64,000 nucleotides of DNA from Syntrophales bacterium (lineage in GTDB: Bacteria > Desulfobacterota > Syntrophia > Syntrophales > PHBD01): the NCBI GenBank assembly GCA_963668175.1, contig OY764159.1, positions 384,001 to 448,000 on the forward strand, written 5' to 3'. This document shows, piece by piece, positions 11,320 to 63,826 of the stretch (the stretch's first letter is position 1; every line of letters begins with the position of its first letter). The translations under genes were made by a program, and so were the position numbers. The notes beneath the pieces were generated by a model. That model searched no databases. It was not told the DNA's origin and saw nothing but the letters and a program-made list of their open reading frames with translations.

Positions 11320-12609
11320 CTATTTCCGGTAATCGAAGACGCGTTTGGACTTTCTTTCCGTCCTGGGAAGAGCCTGGTAGTCGACGATTTCGACGACGGC
11401 GCTCACCAGAGTTTCTTTTCTGATGTCCCTTTCGAGCTTCTTGGCCGTTGTTGCGTCGGCGGAAACGTCGCCTCCTTCGACACGCTCCACCTTGATCTTC
11501 ATATAATCTTTGCCGTCGGCTTCATGATCCAGATGGATCTGGAATTCGCTGCCGATCCCCTGCTGGCGGGAGAGAATCTCGTCGATGTGGCTCGGGTAGA
11601 TGTTGACGCCCCGGACGATGAACATATCGTCGGACCGGCCGACGATCTTCCCATGCCTGGGCAACGGCGAACCGCAGGGACACTCGCCCGGGATGGCCCG
11701 CGTCAGATCACGGGAACGGTAGCGGACGAGCGGCGCCCCCTCTTTGCGGAGCGTCGTATAGACCATTTCGCCCACTTCGCCCTCGGGAACGGGTTCGAGG
11801 GTGTCGGGATCAAGAATCTCCAGGATATAGTAATCGGCCCAGTAGTGAATCCCCTGGTGATGGATACAGTCCAATCCCGTTCCCGGACCGTAGACTTCCG
11901 TGAGTCCGGGGATATCGAAGGCATGCTCCGCTCCCAGAAGGTCCTTGATCCGTTTCGCCATGGCCTCACTGGTCCGTTCCGCGCCGAAGATGGCCTTCTT
12001 GACCTTGATGGCGTCCCTCATGCCTCTCCTGTCGACTTCCTCGGCCAGCAGAAGGGCCATAGATGCCGTGCAGCAAAGGACAGTCGTTTCAAAATCGACC
12101 AAGAACTGGAGCTGCATGTCTATGTTACCGGGACCGGCGGGTATAGCCAGGGCGCCGAACCGCTCACAGCCGAGCTGAAATCCCACCCCGGCGGTCCATA
12201 CGCCGTAGCCCACGCAGATCTGTACCCGGTCGTCCGGCGACAGGTCGGCAATCTCATAGCACCGGGCAAACATATTCGCCCAGTCGTCGATATCCTTCTG
12301 CGTATAGACCATCACCTTCCGCTTGCCCGTCGTTCCAGATGAGGCGTGGAGCCTGACGATATCCGTGAGAGGGACCGACAGAAGCGGCCAGGGGTAGTCT
12401 GCCTGGAGGTCCTGGGCGGTCACGAACGGCAATTTGCGCAGATCGTCCAGGCTTTTTATGTCTTCCGGTTTTACGCCGGCCTCATCGAATCTTTTCCGAT
12501 AGAACGGCGACCCCTGGTAGGCATGTTTCACCGTCCATTTAAGTCCTTCCAACTGGATGCCGGCGAGTTCGTCACGATTTTTCCAGGCCGGCAAAAACGA
12601 TTTTTTCAT
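11320..12609 (-). CDS. paaK: Phenylacetate-CoA ligase family aryl-CoA ligase
   Basis: HASSGTTG, GLTEVYGPG, YRSRDLT, GRSDDMFIVRGVNIYPS. Confidence 0.9.
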   Translation of the reverse strand: MKKSFLPAWKNRDELAGIQLEGLKWTVKHAYQGSPFYRKRFDEAGVKPEDIKSLDDLRKLPFVTAQDLQADYPWPLLSVPLTDIVRLHASSGTTGKRKVMVYTQKDIDDWANMFARCYEIADLSPDDRVQICVGYGVWTAGVGFQLGCERFGALAIPAGPGNIDMQLQFLVDFETTVLCCTASMALLLAEEVDRRGMRDAIKVKKAIFGAERTSEAMAKRIKDLLGAEHAFDIPGLTEVYGPGTGLDCIHHQGIHYWADYYILEILDPDTLEPVPEGEVGEMVYTTLRKEGAPLVRYRSRDLTRAIPGECPCGSPLPRHGKIVGRSDDMFIVRGVNIYPSHIDEILSRQQGIGSEFQIHLDHEADGKDYMKIKVERVEGGDVSADATTAKKLERDIRKETLVSAVVEIVDYQALPRTERKSKRVFDYRK

Positions 12610-54054: not shown

Positions 54055-54276
54055 AGTCCCTGCCGACGAATGATCAACCGTATCAAGCCAACCCGGTGAA
54101 CGCCCTATTGTCTATCACGCCTTGGCAGATGAGTAAAGGAAGATCCTCCGGCTGATCTGATCCAAAACTTTTATGACGAACGATCTTTCCGCCTTTTGAT
54201 CGCAGCAAATAAAAAGCTTGCTTTTTTCTTTTCATTCATATAGGCACAAGTTAAAATATAACTAACGGTATTCATC

Positions 54277-54363
54277 ATGTTTTTTAAGAACACGATAAAG
54301 ATGACAAGCTGGTGGTGGCGCAGCGTACATATGGGGAGGTGCGGACTGGACTGCTGCCGTTAA
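54277..54363 (+). CDS. Trp-rich attenuator leader peptide (TrpL-like)
   Basis: MFFKNTIKMTSWWWRSVHMGRCGLDCCR* (or from ATG 54301); three consecutive TGG codons at 54310-54318; stop 23 nt before the terminator. Confidence 0.85.
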   Translation: MFFKNTIKMTSWWWRSVHMGRCGLDCCR

Positions 54364-54386
54364 ATACACGATAAAGAGACGCTTAG

Positions 54387-54423
54387 AAGCCGCGGGCAGT
54401 TAACAGCTCCCGCGGCTTTTTTT
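54387..54423 (+). terminator. Attenuator intrinsic terminator upstream of iorA
   Basis: AAGCCGCGGG-cagttaacagct-CCCGCGGCTT, T-run 54417-54423; 23 nt before the iorA ATG. Confidence 0.9.
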
Positions 54424-54446
54424 ATTCATCCAGGAGAATTGAGGTC

Positions 54447-56282
54447 ATGAACACAGAAGGAGAAAGAATTTTGATGGGCAATGAAGCCATTGGCCGGGGG
54501 CTTCTCGAAAACGGCTGCGGTCTTGTAGCCTCCTATCCGGGTACGCCGGCGTCGGAAATTCTGGCGTCGGCCGTCGACTTTGCCGGGGAGACCAAAACCC
54601 CGATCCATCTCGAATGGTCCGTCAACGAAAAGGTGGCCTTCGAAGTCGCTCTGGCATACAGCTATACGGGGAAACGAGCGGCCGTAGCCATGAAGCAGGT
54701 CGGATTGAATGTGGCATCCGATCCGGTCACGCGTGCCGCCTATCTGGGCACCAAAGGGGGGCTCGTGCTCGTTGTGGCGGACGATCCGGGCCCGCACAGC
54801 TCGCAGACCGAGCAGGACAGCCGCCTGTTTGCCCTTTTCGCGAAAATACCGGTTTTCGATCCCGCCAGTCCGAAAGAGGCAGGCGAGATGGTCAGGGAAG
54901 CCTTCGCCTTATCGGAACGATACGAGATACCCGTCATGCTCCGGCCGACGACACGGGTATGCCACGCCCGTCAAAACGTGCCCTGTACAGCGCCTGAGGC
55001 GTCCAAAAAGAGTGCACGATTCGAGAAAAATGTCAGCCGCTGGGTGGCCACGCCACAATTTCTCCAAACCCTCCATCGCGAACTGAACGAAAAACTCGAT
55101 GCCATCGGAGGCGATACCCTCTTTTATCCGCATCATATCCCGGGGGACGGAACATCGGCCAACGGCTGCATCGTGGCATCGGGCGTTGCCTACGCCCATG
55201 CATTCGATATTATGAATGATATGAGGTTAATCGGCAAGGTCGATCTCTATCAGGTCCGCATGCCCTATCCTCTAAATAAAGCGTTCATTGGCGACGTCCT
55301 GTCACGTTACGAAAAGGTTCTCGTCCTGGAAGAAACCGACGCGGTCATAGAGCTTCAACTGGGCGACCGCAGGATAACGGGCCGGCTATCGGGCCATGTT
55401 CCCCGCCAGGGCGAACTGACGCCGGACGTTGTCGAAGACATCCTGCGCGCTTTTCTTGAGATGCCCGCCGCCGCGGCAGCACCGCAGCCGAAGGCCAAGG
55501 GCAGACGGCCGTCGCTGTGCGCGGGCTGCGGCCATCGGGCGGCTTTCTATGCGATAAAGGAGACATTCCCCGACGGTATCTTCCCCAGCGACATCGGCTG
55601 TTACACCCTGGGCATGAATTTCGGAGCCGTCGATACGTGCCACTGCATGGGGGCCTGCATCAGCCAAGGCGCAGGATTTTATCGCGCTTTTGCACAGGAT
55701 GGCCTCACGATCCCCACGACCGTCGTCACGATCGGCGATTCTACATTCTTCCACGCCGGCATCCCCGGCCTGATCAACGCGGTCATTCAGAGGGCAAGAT
55801 TTATTCTGGTGATCCTCGATAATGGAACGACCGCCATGACGGGTCACCAGCCGACGCCGCAGTCCGGGCGGATGGCCGACGGCCGTCCCGGCAAGCAGGT
55901 CATGATCCCGGAACTGCTCAAGGCCTGCGGTATCGAATTCTTGAAGGAATGTGATGCTTACGATGTCGATCTCCTGAAGGAAAACCTTCGGGACGCCGAC
56001 CGGTTCACTCGCAGCGAGAAGGGCGGTGTCGCCGTCATCATCGCGCGGCATCCCTGTATCGTCGGCAAGGCCGCCAAGAAGGGCCAGCCGGTTTACACGA
56101 TGAGCATCACCGACGACTGTATGGCCTGCAGGGCCTGCATCGATCATTTTGAATGCCCGGCCATCGCCTTCGATGAAGAACAGGAGAAGGCGGTCATCGA
56201 TCAGAATTTCTGTATCGGCTGCGGCGTCTGCCGGCACGTCTGTCCGGTGGAGGCCATTGTGGCGGAAGGAGGAGTCCAGTGA
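54447..56282 (+). CDS. iorA: Indolepyruvate:ferredoxin oxidoreductase alpha subunit
   Basis: YPGTPASEI, WSVNEKVAFE, MKQVGLNVA, SSQTEQDSR, CAGCGHR, DIGCYTLG, GDSTFFHAG..DNGTTAMTG, C-terminal ferredoxin Cys motifs. Confidence 0.95.
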   Translation: MNTEGERILMGNEAIGRGLLENGCGLVASYPGTPASEILASAVDFAGETKTPIHLEWSVNEKVAFEVALAYSYTGKRAAVAMKQVGLNVASDPVTRAAYLGTKGGLVLVVADDPGPHSSQTEQDSRLFALFAKIPVFDPASPKEAGEMVREAFALSERYEIPVMLRPTTRVCHARQNVPCTAPEASKKSARFEKNVSRWVATPQFLQTLHRELNEKLDAIGGDTLFYPHHIPGDGTSANGCIVASGVAYAHAFDIMNDMRLIGKVDLYQVRMPYPLNKAFIGDVLSRYEKVLVLEETDAVIELQLGDRRITGRLSGHVPRQGELTPDVVEDILRAFLEMPAAAAAPQPKAKGRRPSLCAGCGHRAAFYAIKETFPDGIFPSDIGCYTLGMNFGAVDTCHCMGACISQGAGFYRAFAQDGLTIPTTVVTIGDSTFFHAGIPGLINAVIQRARFILVILDNGTTAMTGHQPTPQSGRMADGRPGKQVMIPELLKACGIEFLKECDAYDVDLLKENLRDADRFTRSEKGGVAVIIARHPCIVGKAAKKGQPVYTMSITDDCMACRACIDHFECPAIAFDEEQEKAVIDQNFCIGCGVCRHVCPVEAIVAEGGVQ

Positions 56283-56791
56283 ATCAACAGATCGTTATCA
56301 GCGGTATCGGAGGCCAGGGTGTCCTTTTTCTGACCCGGATTATTGCGGAAGCAGCCATGGAAAAAGGGTTGCCCGTCCTGACGTCGGAAACGCACGGCAT
56401 GGCCATGCGAGGCGGCACGGTCATTTCACATGTAAAGATCGGTCCTTTTCACAGTCCTCTCATTCGCGCCGCCCAGGCTGATATCGGTTTCTTTCTCAAT
56501 GAAGCCAACCTGGACGTTCACCGGGGTTTCCTGAAGCCGGAAGGGCTGCTGTTCATCAATACACCGAAGCCGGGAGACTACCTGCACGTGGACGCCACGC
56601 GGATTGCCAAGGAAAACGGTTTCCTGGTCATCACGAATTTGGTCCTTCTCGGATTCGCCGTAAGCAGGGGCGGCCTCTTCTGCGATGCCGGCCTCGCGGA
56701 GAACGTTATCCGCAAGCTTTCTCCGGACAACCAGGTCGAATCCAACCTGCGGGGTTTTTCCCTGGGGGTTGCCGCAGGAAAAACCAATTAG
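56279..56791 (+). CDS. iorB: Indolepyruvate:ferredoxin oxidoreductase beta subunit
   Basis: GIGGQGV, SETHGMAMRGGTV..HV; GTG start overlaps the iorA stop. Confidence 0.92.
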   Translation: MNQQIVISGIGGQGVLFLTRIIAEAAMEKGLPVLTSETHGMAMRGGTVISHVKIGPFHSPLIRAAQADIGFFLNEANLDVHRGFLKPEGLLFINTPKPGDYLHVDATRIAKENGFLVITNLVLLGFAVSRGGLFCDAGLAENVIRKLSPDNQVESNLRGFSLGVAAGKTN

Positions 56792-56825: not shown

Positions 56826-57854
56826 ATGAAGGCATTGAGAATCATAAGCGGTATCTTGCTGGCCGTCATCTTTCTGTTTATCGCGGCTCCCTCTCCGTCG
56901 TCAGCCGCGGGCCCCATCAAGCTCACCTATGCAAACTTTCCCCCGGCACCGACGTTTCCCTGCGTCCAGATGGAACGCTGGGCCCGGGAAGCGGAAAAGC
57001 GCACGAACGGCCAGGTCAAGATCCAGACATTTCCGGGCGGGACGCTGCTGCCGGCCAAGAATATTTTTGACGGCGTCATTGCCGGCACCGCCGATATCGG
57101 CAACTTTGCCATGAGCTATCAGCCGGGACGTTTTCCCGTGTCGGAAGCCGTCGATCTGCCGCTCGGATTTGCAAGCGCCCGCGTAGCGAGTCTCGTTCTC
57201 TATGACATAATTGAAAAATACAGACCGAAGGAATTCGAAAAGGTCAAGGTCCTGACCGTCTTCACCTGCCCGCCGGCCGACCTGATGACAAGCAAACCGG
57301 TCAGAACCCTTGCAGATTTAAAGGGCATGGAACTTCGCTCGTCGGGCACCGGCGTCGAGGTGATCAAGGCCTTGGGCGGCATACCCATCGCCATGCCCCA
57401 GTCGGACACGCCTGAGGCGATCCAGAAGGGCATCGTCAAGGGCGTTGTTTCTTCCCTCGAAGTTTTGAAGGACCTGAATTACGCAGCTTACACCCCTTAT
57501 GCGACCGATGCCAACCTCTTCGTCGTCACCTTTGCGGTGGTCATGAACCGGGACAAATGGAATGCGCTGCCCGCCGACGTCAAAAAGACACTGGAGGCCC
57601 TGGGAAGGGAGCAGGCCGAATGGACGGGCAAATATGTCGACGGCCATGTCAAGGAAGCCCTCGCCTGGTCCAAACAGAAATACAACCACCAGCTCCTGCA
57701 GCTTTCAGCGAAAGACAAGGCGGAAATAGCTGCCCGTGTCAAGCCGATGATCGACGGCTACATCAAGAGGGTCAACGGCCAGGGGATACAAGGCGCACAA
57801 ATCATAGCCGATATCCAGTCTCTGAAACGCAAATACGAAAAAACGTCCCGATAG
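56826..57854 (+). CDS. dctP: TRAP transporter substrate-binding protein
   Basis: Signal peptide, TNGQVKIQTFPGGTL, ADLKGMELR (carboxylate-binding Arg), MNRDKWNALP; GGAGG SD. Confidence 0.92.
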   Translation: MKALRIISGILLAVIFLFIAAPSPSSAAGPIKLTYANFPPAPTFPCVQMERWAREAEKRTNGQVKIQTFPGGTLLPAKNIFDGVIAGTADIGNFAMSYQPGRFPVSEAVDLPLGFASARVASLVLYDIIEKYRPKEFEKVKVLTVFTCPPADLMTSKPVRTLADLKGMELRSSGTGVEVIKALGGIPIAMPQSDTPEAIQKGIVKGVVSSLEVLKDLNYAAYTPYATDANLFVVTFAVVMNRDKWNALPADVKKTLEALGREQAEWTGKYVDGHVKEALAWSKQKYNHQLLQLSAKDKAEIAARVKPMIDGYIKRVNGQGIQGAQIIADIQSLKRKYEKTSR

Positions 57855-57887: not shown

Positions 57888-58445
57888 ATGCATATTCTCG
57901 AAAGAATCAATTTGTACCTTAACCGTTATCTGCTCATGATCGGCGGCATCGCCGTCCTGGCCCTCATGGCCCTGGCCACGGGAAACGTCGTCCTTCGCCT
58001 TTTCCAAATGCCTTACGCGGGAACCTATGAATTCGTGTCGTTTCTCGGTGCGATCGTCACGGCTTCGGCCCTCGGCTATACGCAACTGAAAGGGGACCAC
58101 ATCATCGTCGATATCCTGTCGGATCACTTTCCCGGACCGCTGAAGAGCATCGCCGACGCCCTCTCCTCCTTTATCAGCGCCATTTTCTTCACCATCGTGT
58201 CCTGGCAGATGTTTGTCTGGGGCATGAAGCTCGCGGAATCGGGAGAGCTTTCCGAAACGCTCAAGGTGGTCTATCACCCCTATGTGTACTGCGTCGCGGT
58301 GGGTTTTGCCACACTGTCCCTAACTTGTGCGATCGACGTCATGGCCATATTGCGGAAACGCGCTCAGGTGCCCGCCGGTACAGAATCAGCGATACAGCAA
58401 TCCGGTTTGGGCTTCAGTGAAAGCCCCAGGGAGGAACGGTCATGA
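57888..58445 (+). CDS. dctQ: TRAP transporter small permease
   Basis: Four TM helices, NVVLR, HIIVD. Confidence 0.9.
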   Translation: MHILERINLYLNRYLLMIGGIAVLALMALATGNVVLRLFQMPYAGTYEFVSFLGAIVTASALGYTQLKGDHIIVDILSDHFPGPLKSIADALSSFISAIFFTIVSWQMFVWGMKLAESGELSETLKVVYHPYVYCVAVGFATLSLTCAIDVMAILRKRAQVPAGTESAIQQSGLGFSESPREERS

Positions 58446-59749
58446 GCGAATCCATGGTAGGCGTTATCGGCATCCTGGTCATGTTTGCCACCTTGTTTTT
58501 CCTGAGGATACCGGCCGGCTTTACCATGGCCGTCGTCGGCTTTTTCGGAATTGCCTACGTGACATCCTTCCAGGCCGCCTTCGGCATGATCGGCTCCGAG
58601 ATGTGGAGTATCTTCTCCAACTACGGCCTGACGGTTATTCCGATGTTCATTCTGGTCGGCGAAATCGTGCATTACGCCGGCTACAATGACAGCCTCTATC
58701 ATGCCACCCACCGGTGGTTCGGACATTTCCGCGGGGGCCTGGCCATTACGACGATCATGGCTTCGGCGGCGTTTTCCGCCATCAGCGGCTCCAACACGGC
58801 CACGGCGGCAACCATGAGCAAAGTGGCCATCCCGGCCATGAAGAAATACAACTACCACCCCATCCTGAATGCAGGTTCCGTTGCTGCAGGAGCCACGCTG
58901 GGCGTTCTGATCCCGCCCAGTATCGTCCTCGTCGTTTACGGCCTCTATACGGGGCAGTCCATCGGCAAGCTATTCTTCGGCAACGTCATCCCCAGCGCAA
59001 TTCTCACCGTTTTGATTGCTGCGACCGTCTTTGCCATTTGCGCCCGTCATCCCGATTGGGGACCGGCAGCGGAGAAAAGCACCTGGAAGGAAAGGTTCAA
59101 GGCCCTCCCGGAAGCACTGGACATATTAGTCCTTTTTATCATTATCATGTATGCCCTCTTTACGGGCGTCGTTACGGCGACGGAAGCGGCAGCCCTCAGC
59201 TGCACCCTGGCGCTGATCATCAGCCTGGCCCGCCGGAAGCTCACCTGGGCGGCCTTTCTGTCGTCCATCGAAGATACACTTCGCATCTCCTGCCTGATCT
59301 TCATGATTATCGCCGGGGCCGTTATCTTCGGAAGATTTTTGACGATATCCCGTCTGCCTTATGAGGTCGCATCCTGGATCGGGTCCCTGGCCATGCCCAA
59401 CTGGCTGCTTCTGTCCGTCATCCTCTGCTGCTACATCGTCGGCGGCTGCATCATGGACGCCCTTGCTTTTCTCCTCATATCCCTGCCCATATTCTATCCG
59501 ATCGTGATCGGTATGGGGTACGACCCGATCTGGTTCGGACAGATCATCACGATTGTTACGACCATGGGCTCCATCATGCCGCCCATTGGAATATGCTGCT
59601 ATGTCGTCCACGGCATGGCAAAGGACATTCCCCTGGCCACCGTCTTTCGCGGCGGGTTCTACTACATCCCGTCCTACATCATCGCCATCATCCTGTTGAT
59701 GCTTTCGCCCTATTGGACGGTCTTGGTTTTGTCGGACCTGGTTAAATAG
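58442..59749 (+). CDS. dctM: TRAP transporter large permease
   Basis: VIPMFIL, AISGSNTATA, LIPPSI, TATEAAA, MPPIG. Confidence 0.93.
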   Translation: MSESMVGVIGILVMFATLFFLRIPAGFTMAVVGFFGIAYVTSFQAAFGMIGSEMWSIFSNYGLTVIPMFILVGEIVHYAGYNDSLYHATHRWFGHFRGGLAITTIMASAAFSAISGSNTATAATMSKVAIPAMKKYNYHPILNAGSVAAGATLGVLIPPSIVLVVYGLYTGQSIGKLFFGNVIPSAILTVLIAATVFAICARHPDWGPAAEKSTWKERFKALPEALDILVLFIIIMYALFTGVVTATEAAALSCTLALIISLARRKLTWAAFLSSIEDTLRISCLIFMIIAGAVIFGRFLTISRLPYEVASWIGSLAMPNWLLLSVILCCYIVGGCIMDALAFLLISLPIFYPIVIGMGYDPIWFGQIITIVTTMGSIMPPIGICCYVVHGMAKDIPLATVFRGGFYYIPSYIIAIILLMLSPYWTVLVLSDLVK

Positions 59750-59847
59750 ATCACGTGACGCGCCGACCGACATATAAGGGTTGATCCATTATCGCTTATT
59801 TGATACATGATTGTATCATTGAGTCATTTTCAACTCGAAGGACGGCC

Positions 59848-60192
59848 ATGAACGATCTACTGGAAAGCCGGGATGAAGAGATTGTGGGCGATATGCACCG
59901 GGCGGCGCAGACGATTGTGGAATTCACGGTAGGCGTCAGTTTCGAGCAGTTTATCAGCGACCGGAAACTGCAATTTGCCCTGGAGAGGTTGATCGACATC
60001 ATCGGGCAGGATGCCGTGAATGTATCGGAGGCTTTTCGCAGCCACTATGCCGATATATCCTGGCAGACGTTGATGACGCTCCGTCACGTTCTGGCCATGG
60101 AGGATGGGGCCAAGCAGGAACGCATGTGGGATCTCGTCTCCGTGCAGATACCGGAACTCGCGGCAGAACTGGAATCATTGGCGCCTTACTGA
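59848..60192 (+). CDS. HepT/DUF86-like HEPN protein with a degenerate catalytic motif
   Basis: QFALERLIDIIGQ...ISWQ..LRHVLAM fits the DUF86 pattern, but Rx4H is changed to Rx4M. Confidence 0.75.
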   Translation: MNDLLESRDEEIVGDMHRAAQTIVEFTVGVSFEQFISDRKLQFALERLIDIIGQDAVNVSEAFRSHYADISWQTLMTLRHVLAMEDGAKQERMWDLVSVQIPELAAELESLAPY

Positions 60193-63278: not shown

Positions 63279-63424
63279 TACGCGACCGGAACGCCGGCGC
63301 TGAAAAGCCTTGAGATATCCGACACCCGGAGCGGAAGCACGGCAATAACTTCTGAAATTCACGCCTTGCGATCGCTTTGCAGTTTTCCTTGACACCGGTA
63401 ATTTTTCCATCCTATACGGCGGCC

Positions 63425-63826
63425 ATGAAAAAATATGACGTTCCTCAGGATGAGATCCCCATCTTTCACGGCGAAAAGAAGGTGCTGTATGCCGTGGACG
63501 AAACCGGCCGTTACGCCGCAGTCCAAAGCAGCGGTTGGGACGTGGAGAGGGTAGTCCTGGAGCAGGCCCTGGACGACTACGAGCAAAAGGCGGAGGCGGC
63601 AAAGCGGCGAATCAAAGACGGCGAAAGTTCCCCTCTCGAATATTTCATGTACAAGCGCCGGATGGACAGCCGGGTCCTGGCCCAAGCGACGGGCTTTGCG
63701 GGCTGGCGGGTCAAAAGGCACTTAAAGCCTGAACATTTCAATAAACTTAAAGATTCTACCATGCAGGAATACGCCCGGGTCCTCCAGGTTAGTCCCGATG
63801 TCCTGAAGCGTTTTGACGGAGCTTGA
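63425..63826 (+). CDS. Conserved hypothetical protein of a type I associate with dialkylresorcinol/flexirubin-type clusters
   Basis: DVPQD..LYAVDETGRY..SSGW..SPLEYFM..MD..LAQATG..WRVKRHLKP; family assignment is from recall; upstream TTGACA-18-TATACG. Confidence 0.7.
   Translation: MKKYDVPQDEIPIFHGEKKVLYAVDETGRYAAVQSSGWDVERVVLEQALDDYEQKAEAAKRRIKDGESSPLEYFMYKRRMDSRVLAQATGFAGWRVKRHLKPEHFNKLKDSTMQEYARVLQVSPDVLKRFDGA

Follow-up and report, generated by a model that had tools for sequence, protein, structure and literature searches.

A predicted ribosome-coupled tryptophan attenuator in front of an iorAB-dctPQM operon in a Syntrophales bacterium

The analyzed stretch of DNA (the window, 64,000 nucleotides of contig OY764159.1 from a Syntrophales bacterium) contains a short leader followed by five genes for an IorAB-like oxidoreductase and a TRAP transporter (Table 1). 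Models for indolepyruvate:ferredoxin oxidoreductase (IOR) gave the best matches for both subunits, although all scores were below the curated cut-offs (TIGR03334 reached 104.7, cut-off 205.8). All three parts of the transporter, DctP, DctQ and DctM, are present, and the top PDB matches of DctP were 4N6D, 4PGN/4PGP and 4NAP. For the best match, 4N6D, a triiodo-aminoisophthalate is given (passages of PMC10443332), and for Dde_0634 (4NAP, 4PGN, 4PGP) D-Trp, indole-3-pyruvate and indole-3-acetate are given as ligands (parts of PMC10443332 and PMC9973260). By hand count the window DctP is ∼46% identical to Dde_0634, and indole acids are its putative ligands. Directly after dctM lies a gene for a HepT-like ribonuclease (59800-60192, +), and a DarG-family dialkylresorcinol biosynthesis protein, above cut-off, is encoded at 63377-63826 (+).

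Table 1. Features of the iorAB-dctPQM locus and of the unlinked ligase gene (positions in the window)
Feature	Position	Strand	Remarks
Candidate promoter (TTGCTT, 17 nt, TAGGCA)	54218..54246	+	loose TTG-16/18-TA pattern
Leader ORF, 28 aa	54277..54363	+	weak Shine-Dalgarno, judged by eye
Three tandem Trp control codons, within segment 1	54310..54318	+	TGG x3
1:2 hairpin (anti-antiterminator)	54311..54358	+	-18.2 kcal/mol; z -0.82 in window copy
Segment 2, immediately 5' of leader stop codon	54349..54359	+	alternative partner of segments 1 and 3
Intrinsic terminator 3:4 with U tract	54386..54423	+	-23.9 kcal/mol, z -6.1
Segment 3, in terminator 5' arm; antiterminator partner	54392..54401	+	
iorA-like, indolepyruvate:ferredoxin oxidoreductase alpha subunit	54447..56282	+	TIGR03336 629.1 bits, cut-off 650.9
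iorB-like, beta subunit	56279..56791	+	PRK06274 184.8 bits, cut-off 227; PF01558
DctP, TRAP binding protein; relative of the indole-acid binder Dde_0634	56826..57854	+	NF037995 above cut-off
TRAP small permease DctQ	57888..58445	+	PF04290 62.4 bits
TRAP large permease DctM	58442..59749	+	TIGR00786 above cut-off
Unlinked PaaK-like aryl-acetate CoA ligase	11320..12609	-	TIGR02155 403 bits, cut-off 646

The PaaK-like ligase gene is located 42 kb from the iorA operon, and no Trp leader was seen upstream of it. Its product is 75-79% identical to ligases encoded near iorA in relatives and, by this resemblance, is the probable enzyme for the activating step of the route discussed below. No aminotransferase is found among the genes of the iorAB-dctPQM operon; 19 PF00155 matches in the genome are candidates for this activity. 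Two other iorA paralogues and further ligases are also present in the genome.

The leader ORF ends with the stop codon TAA at 54361-54363 and has two in-frame candidate starts, ATG 54277 and ATG 54301. In the family of 46 iorA leaders described below, an in-frame ATG lies 10 codons before the first Trp codon in 35 cases and 11 codons before it in 4. ATG 54277 matches this spacing, and the 28-aa form is therefore likely; a start at ATG 54301 is disfavored by it. The three tandem TGG codons in the ORF had been described in an earlier note on this DNA, and all coordinates given there agree with the sequence. Leaders of the family have three (26/46) or four (20/46) Trp codons, and no Phe or Tyr control codons are added. 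The speculation that two Phe codons after the first ATG sense Phe was rejected, since FF occurs in 1 of the 46 leaders and Phe makes up 4.2% of leader residues. The loose promoter pattern is found upstream of 43 of the 46 leaders, a count made without shuffle control, and an alternative candidate promoter lies at 54229-54257 in the window.

A strong terminator had been placed just before iorA, at 54387-54423. This position was right, and none of 200 shuffled sequences folded as well, while a simple terminator scan of the window did not pick up the hairpin at 54386-54423. Only 23 nt separate the T run from the start codon of iorA (ATG 54447), which leaves little space for a separate iorA promoter.

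The 4.57-Mb genome contains 29 TGGTGGTGG sites, 8 of them in small ORFs, and 3 of these are followed by a hairpin and a T run. Two of the three hairpins, before iorA and trpE, are at ∼-24 kcal/mol and the third is at -13.7. Looking for a Trp leader upstream of trpE in this lineage had been proposed as a check; the same leader type indeed precedes the complete trpEGDCFBA operon of this genome (gene names from translations and Pfam searches), and the control site has the sequence SWWWR in the two leaders. The trp copy (G000:C1 ∼59200-59360, -, outside the window) is followed by a second terminator-like hairpin. On trpB2, trpS and paaK of this genome no leader was seen by eye or by scan. Within the order, the pattern of a Trp run plus terminator was found in 253 of 339 genomes and the reversed control gave 0; a looser Trp-leader pattern was present in 98 of 401 genomes of the phylum.

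Close iorA orthologs were identified in 53 of the 339 genomes of the order (54 matches). Two were left out, G282 (53% identity) and G305 (no N-terminus), and 52 loci were examined. A leader with 3-4 Trp codons and a terminator of ≤ -15 kcal/mol precedes iorA in 46 loci, and in G272 leader and terminator head a rearranged dctPQM-paaK-iorAB operon, so that the tandem-Trp leaders sought upstream of orthologous iorA occur, with terminator, in 47/52 loci. Three loci are ended by contig edges and their leaders were not assessable (L157, L012, L192), and two near-identical orthologs are without any leader (L177, L182). No tandem WW was found in any frame within 400 nt upstream of 26 distant iorA paralogues, some of which may be operon-internal. 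dctP is linked to iorA in 42 of the 52 loci; 32 loci have a paaK-like ligase gene ≤1.5 kb upstream, in most cases outside the attenuator. In L055, L234 and L345 iorAB and dctPQM form convergent split units, with a Trp leader on each unit in L234. In an iorA tree (158 sequences, FastTree, midpoint root), all leader-bearing sequences and those with a TrpR-like gene (see below) fell in one clade, with the two paralogues of this genome outside (support 0.84). The closest named iorA records carry the labels Syntrophaceae, Syntrophales, Smithella or unclassified deltaproteobacteria.

Alignment of the family showed two-sided changes in 9 of 12 consensus pairs of the terminator. The 1:2 duplex was better than its own shuffle mean in 44 of 46 leaders. 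For the 2:3 duplex the median was -19.3 compared with -12.1 after shuffling, and at most 10 of 200 shuffles were as good in 36/46 leaders. The 2:3 columns were 84.5% paired (slid controls 33-42%) and contained 34 two-sided changes versus 12.3 in shuffled alignments, with 0 of 500 shuffles as high; these counts are inflated, as kin are not independent, and the column structure was derived from one sub-clade. When segment 2 was paired with its own terminator arm and with all 46 arms, the means were -19.2 and -15.8, respectively, with the own arm best in 1/46. At the family level, antiterminator and terminator pairing was found to be mutually exclusive.

To see which genes follow the leader type elsewhere, 70 loci were read, a non-random sample of 30 from the phylum scan and 40 hand-picked likely second copies. 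In most, trpE or trpD follows; other targets are iorA (9), dctP alone (4), a paaK-like gene (1), trpB2 (5), aro genes (5) and ubiX/ubiD (3), and the leader also precedes iorA coupled with an ABC importer. The genes for import, activation and the IOR step (dctP, a paaK-like gene and iorA) thus each stand immediately behind the switch in one locus or another. Of the five aro leaders, four combine W codons with F and Y; they precede three aroF-headed operons and one aroB-containing operon with related genes (L248, L250, L252, L256) and are candidate three-amino-acid attenuators. The Trp leaders in L230, L235 and L255 stand before ubiX-ubiD or ubiD, one of them directly 5' of a separately attenuated trpD; a speculative function is the salvage of indole-3-carboxylate or anthranilate-related compounds. 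In G002, a same-family genome that lacks a close iorA ortholog, the leader sub-type of the window is located on trpB2 (L226:8752 onward). A separate iorA clade lies near trpB2 and xanthine-dehydrogenase-family genes (L078, L079, L084).

In two genomes (Desulfofustis sp. and Desulfoprunum benzoelyticum records) a TrpR-like gene divergent to livH-iorAB takes the place of the leader. A perfect palindrome similar to the E. coli TrpR operator lies beside it and has no second exact copy in either genome. The genes are found at L075:2937-3191 (-) and in L111, and both genomes carry trpE elsewhere. The L075 protein scored 69.8 with Pfam (cut-off 27) and 53.2 with TIGR01321 (cut-off 67.25). No TrpR was found in the genome of the window. 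Among ior loci with an ABC importer, 0 of 11 checked had a Trp leader before livH, and a TrpR-type box was present in 2 of 17; in two ABC-type operons an ABC ATPase is fused to a PaaK-like CoA ligase (L045:10945-13035, L072:10448-12544). Fifty DctP homologs without iorAB directly upstream had no Trp leader within the 330 nt read, which indicates that the DctP family is not Trp-specific; 2 further homologs do have one. Many stand-alone close DctP homologs (L278-L375) share a GTATAC-type promoter palindrome, presumably GntR-like, and no leader.

Combining the conservation in 47/52 loci, the covariation and the paralogous leader of the trp operon, the window element is very probably a classical ribosome-coupled Trp transcription attenuator, and the TrpL-type logic put forward for this operon is supported. 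With ample Trp-tRNA, the ribosome would reach the stop codon at 54361 and mask segment 2, and the terminator would form. With scarce Trp-tRNA, it would stall at the Trp codons, segments 2 and 3 would pair and transcription would enter iorAB-dctPQM. The TRAP transporter may bring in indole-3-acetate, perhaps indole-3-pyruvate; the PaaK-like ligase would convert indole-3-acetate to indoleacetyl-CoA, IorAB, working in reverse, would form indole-3-pyruvate from indoleacetyl-CoA, CO2 and reduced ferredoxin, and a housekeeping aminotransferase would yield Trp. Trp as the product makes most sense because the operon would be induced by Trp shortage. The operon is thus likely a route from indole acids to Trp, judged from its genes and predicted control, and the label "non-trp operon" in the earlier note is probably misleading, as an alternative way to Trp is the best interpretation of these genes. 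In favor of this route are the Trp-only ior leaders, the TrpR-like genes, the relationship of DctP to Dde_0634 and the paaK-like genes near iorA. Evidence on the other side comprises the weak antiterminator and Shine-Dalgarno sequence of this copy, the two close orthologs without a leader, the scarcity of Trp control among ABC-type loci and DctP homologs, the different ligand given for 4N6D, the lack of an aminotransferase gene in the operon and the distant, leaderless ligase gene. The reading as a whole, an attenuator on an anabolic indole-acid route induced by Trp starvation, is held with good confidence and suggests that anaerobes of this group build Trp from scavenged indole acids under shortage. 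With somewhat less assurance, the IorAB clade is regarded as a dedicated Trp-making carboxylase that, together with a ligase and an importer of the TRAP or ABC type, would form a bacterial salvage pathway from indole-3-acetate and CO2 to Trp under two independent Trp controls, attenuator and TrpR. The phylum would then have several modules for Trp salvage, this pathway being one and the Trp-attenuated UbiD decarboxylases perhaps belonging to another.

The attenuator could also be real in an operon for the salvage of aryl acids in general (phenylacetate, hydroxyphenylacetate and indoleacetate), which would be turned into Phe, Tyr and Trp while the Trp level stands in for all three as the signal. 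IOR serves such an aryl-acid route in Methanococcus maripaludis (parts of PMC4162585), the ligase is PaaK-like and members of the DctP family occur widely outside Trp control. However, operons for all aromatic amino acids in the phylum add F/Y codons to their leaders and the ior leaders do not, and the additional iorA paralogues and ligases of this genome also argue against such a broad role, which is considered unlikely.

It is improbable that IorAB works oxidatively behind a real Trp attenuator, converting an imported indole 2-oxo-acid via the acyl-CoA to indole, from which TrpB/TrpB2 would make Trp. The leaders before trpB2 and before UbiD-family decarboxylases would fit this, as would 3 loci in which trpB2 neighbors a more distant iorA gene, but those trpB2-linked iorA genes lie outside the leader-bearing clade. 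Moreover, the linked CoA ligase suits aryl-acetate activation ahead of carboxylation, and an immediate precursor of Trp would be lost if indolepyruvate were oxidized.

The folding of the window copy bears on whether the attenuator has decayed in this genome and mostly terminates at any Trp level. The earlier note had placed the segments at 54316-54323, 54349-54359 and 54392-54401; these positions stood, but the 1:2 register did not, as the predicted helix joins 54311-54318 with 54351-54358. The proposed 2:3 pairing is supported in the family, whereas in the window copy alone it is no better than in shuffled sequences (z -0.07 and +1.69; the duplex was matched by 78/200 shuffles). Neither 1:2 nor 2:3 beats shuffles in this copy, and support for both therefore comes from the family. 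Two 2:3 registers are about equal as bare helices, the one described earlier at -8.1 and another at -7.9 kcal/mol. The latter pairs GCTGCC (54353-58) with GGCAGT (54395-400) and is common to the two closest leaders. At ∼-8 kcal/mol as a bare helix, compared with -24.1 for the duplex of the trpE leader of this genome, the window antiterminator is among the weakest of the family, and in the full-length fold it has to compete with a local hairpin for segment 2. Constrained folding with a modeled ribosome gave the 2:3 helix on a partial transcript for a ribosome stalled on the Trp codons, but not for one at the stop codon. On the full transcript the terminator won in every case, so that switching would have to be kinetic. 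Attenuator switching is in general a kinetic process. Decay would agree with the weak 2:3 helix and the weak Shine-Dalgarno sequence, but the ORF, its Trp run, the spacing and the genes behind it have stayed intact, and the short GCTGCC/GGCAGT core recurs upstream of iorA in G322, whose iorA groups as sister to the window iorA (support 0.95), as well as upstream of trpB2 in G002; decay is thus very improbable. That a chance small ORF lies ahead of an ordinary terminator, as the missing Rfam match at gathering score might suggest, is contradicted by the 47/52 conservation, the covarying helices, the paralogous leader at trpE and the count of sites over the whole genome and is hardly credible.

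A functional attenuator on an indole-acid operon, the preferred reading, combines a known mechanism with an apparently new target. The earlier note was not aware of such control of IOR/TRAP genes, and no Trp attenuator on ior/TRAP genes was found in literature searches, judged by titles and the start of abstracts; earlier predictions in deltaproteobacteria are possible. The word "indolepyruvate" is absent from the supplements of PMC4833913 and from passages of PMC8632094.

Direction and substrate of an enzyme annotated as IOR are not readable from its sequence; induction by Trp shortage would point to the synthetic direction and an indole substrate. Formation of Trp from indole-3-acetate by reductive carboxylation has been reported in rumen anaerobes, and the operon and the ligase provide candidate genes for such a synthesis. 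If this is true, indole-3-acetate, an auxin, has a sink in these anaerobes. The leader also serves as a simple marker of Trp-related genes in the phylum.

The trpL leader of E. coli (Rfam Trp_leader) consists of a short ORF with tandem Trp codons, mutually exclusive 1:2, 2:3 and 3:4 helices and a U-tailed terminator. The window leader likewise has a short ORF, tandem Trp codons, predicted exclusive helices and a U-tailed terminator before the first gene. It differs in the 3-4 Trp codons of its family, in its oxidoreductase and transporter target and in Rfam, where nothing reached gathering score, Trp_leader had no match up to E 10 and weak scores were obtained for Phe_leader (18.4 of 55 bits) and His_leader (14.7 of 49 bits). 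In Actinobacteria, Trp attenuators with double or triple UGG were predicted before trp, trpB2A and trpS2 (parts of PMC1262725). They share with the window leader the UGG run, a GC-rich terminator with GCC-type triples and targets beyond trpE; unlike the window operon, the targets named in those parts of PMC1262725 are Trp synthesis and synthetase genes only. In M. maripaludis aromatic amino acids are made from aryl acids in an IorAB-dependent manner (parts of PMC4162585, citing Porat 2004), and an IOR-dependent synthesis is likewise proposed for the window operon; in contrast to this archaeal pathway, the system described here is bacterial, includes an importer and follows an RNA switch that appears to respond to Trp only.
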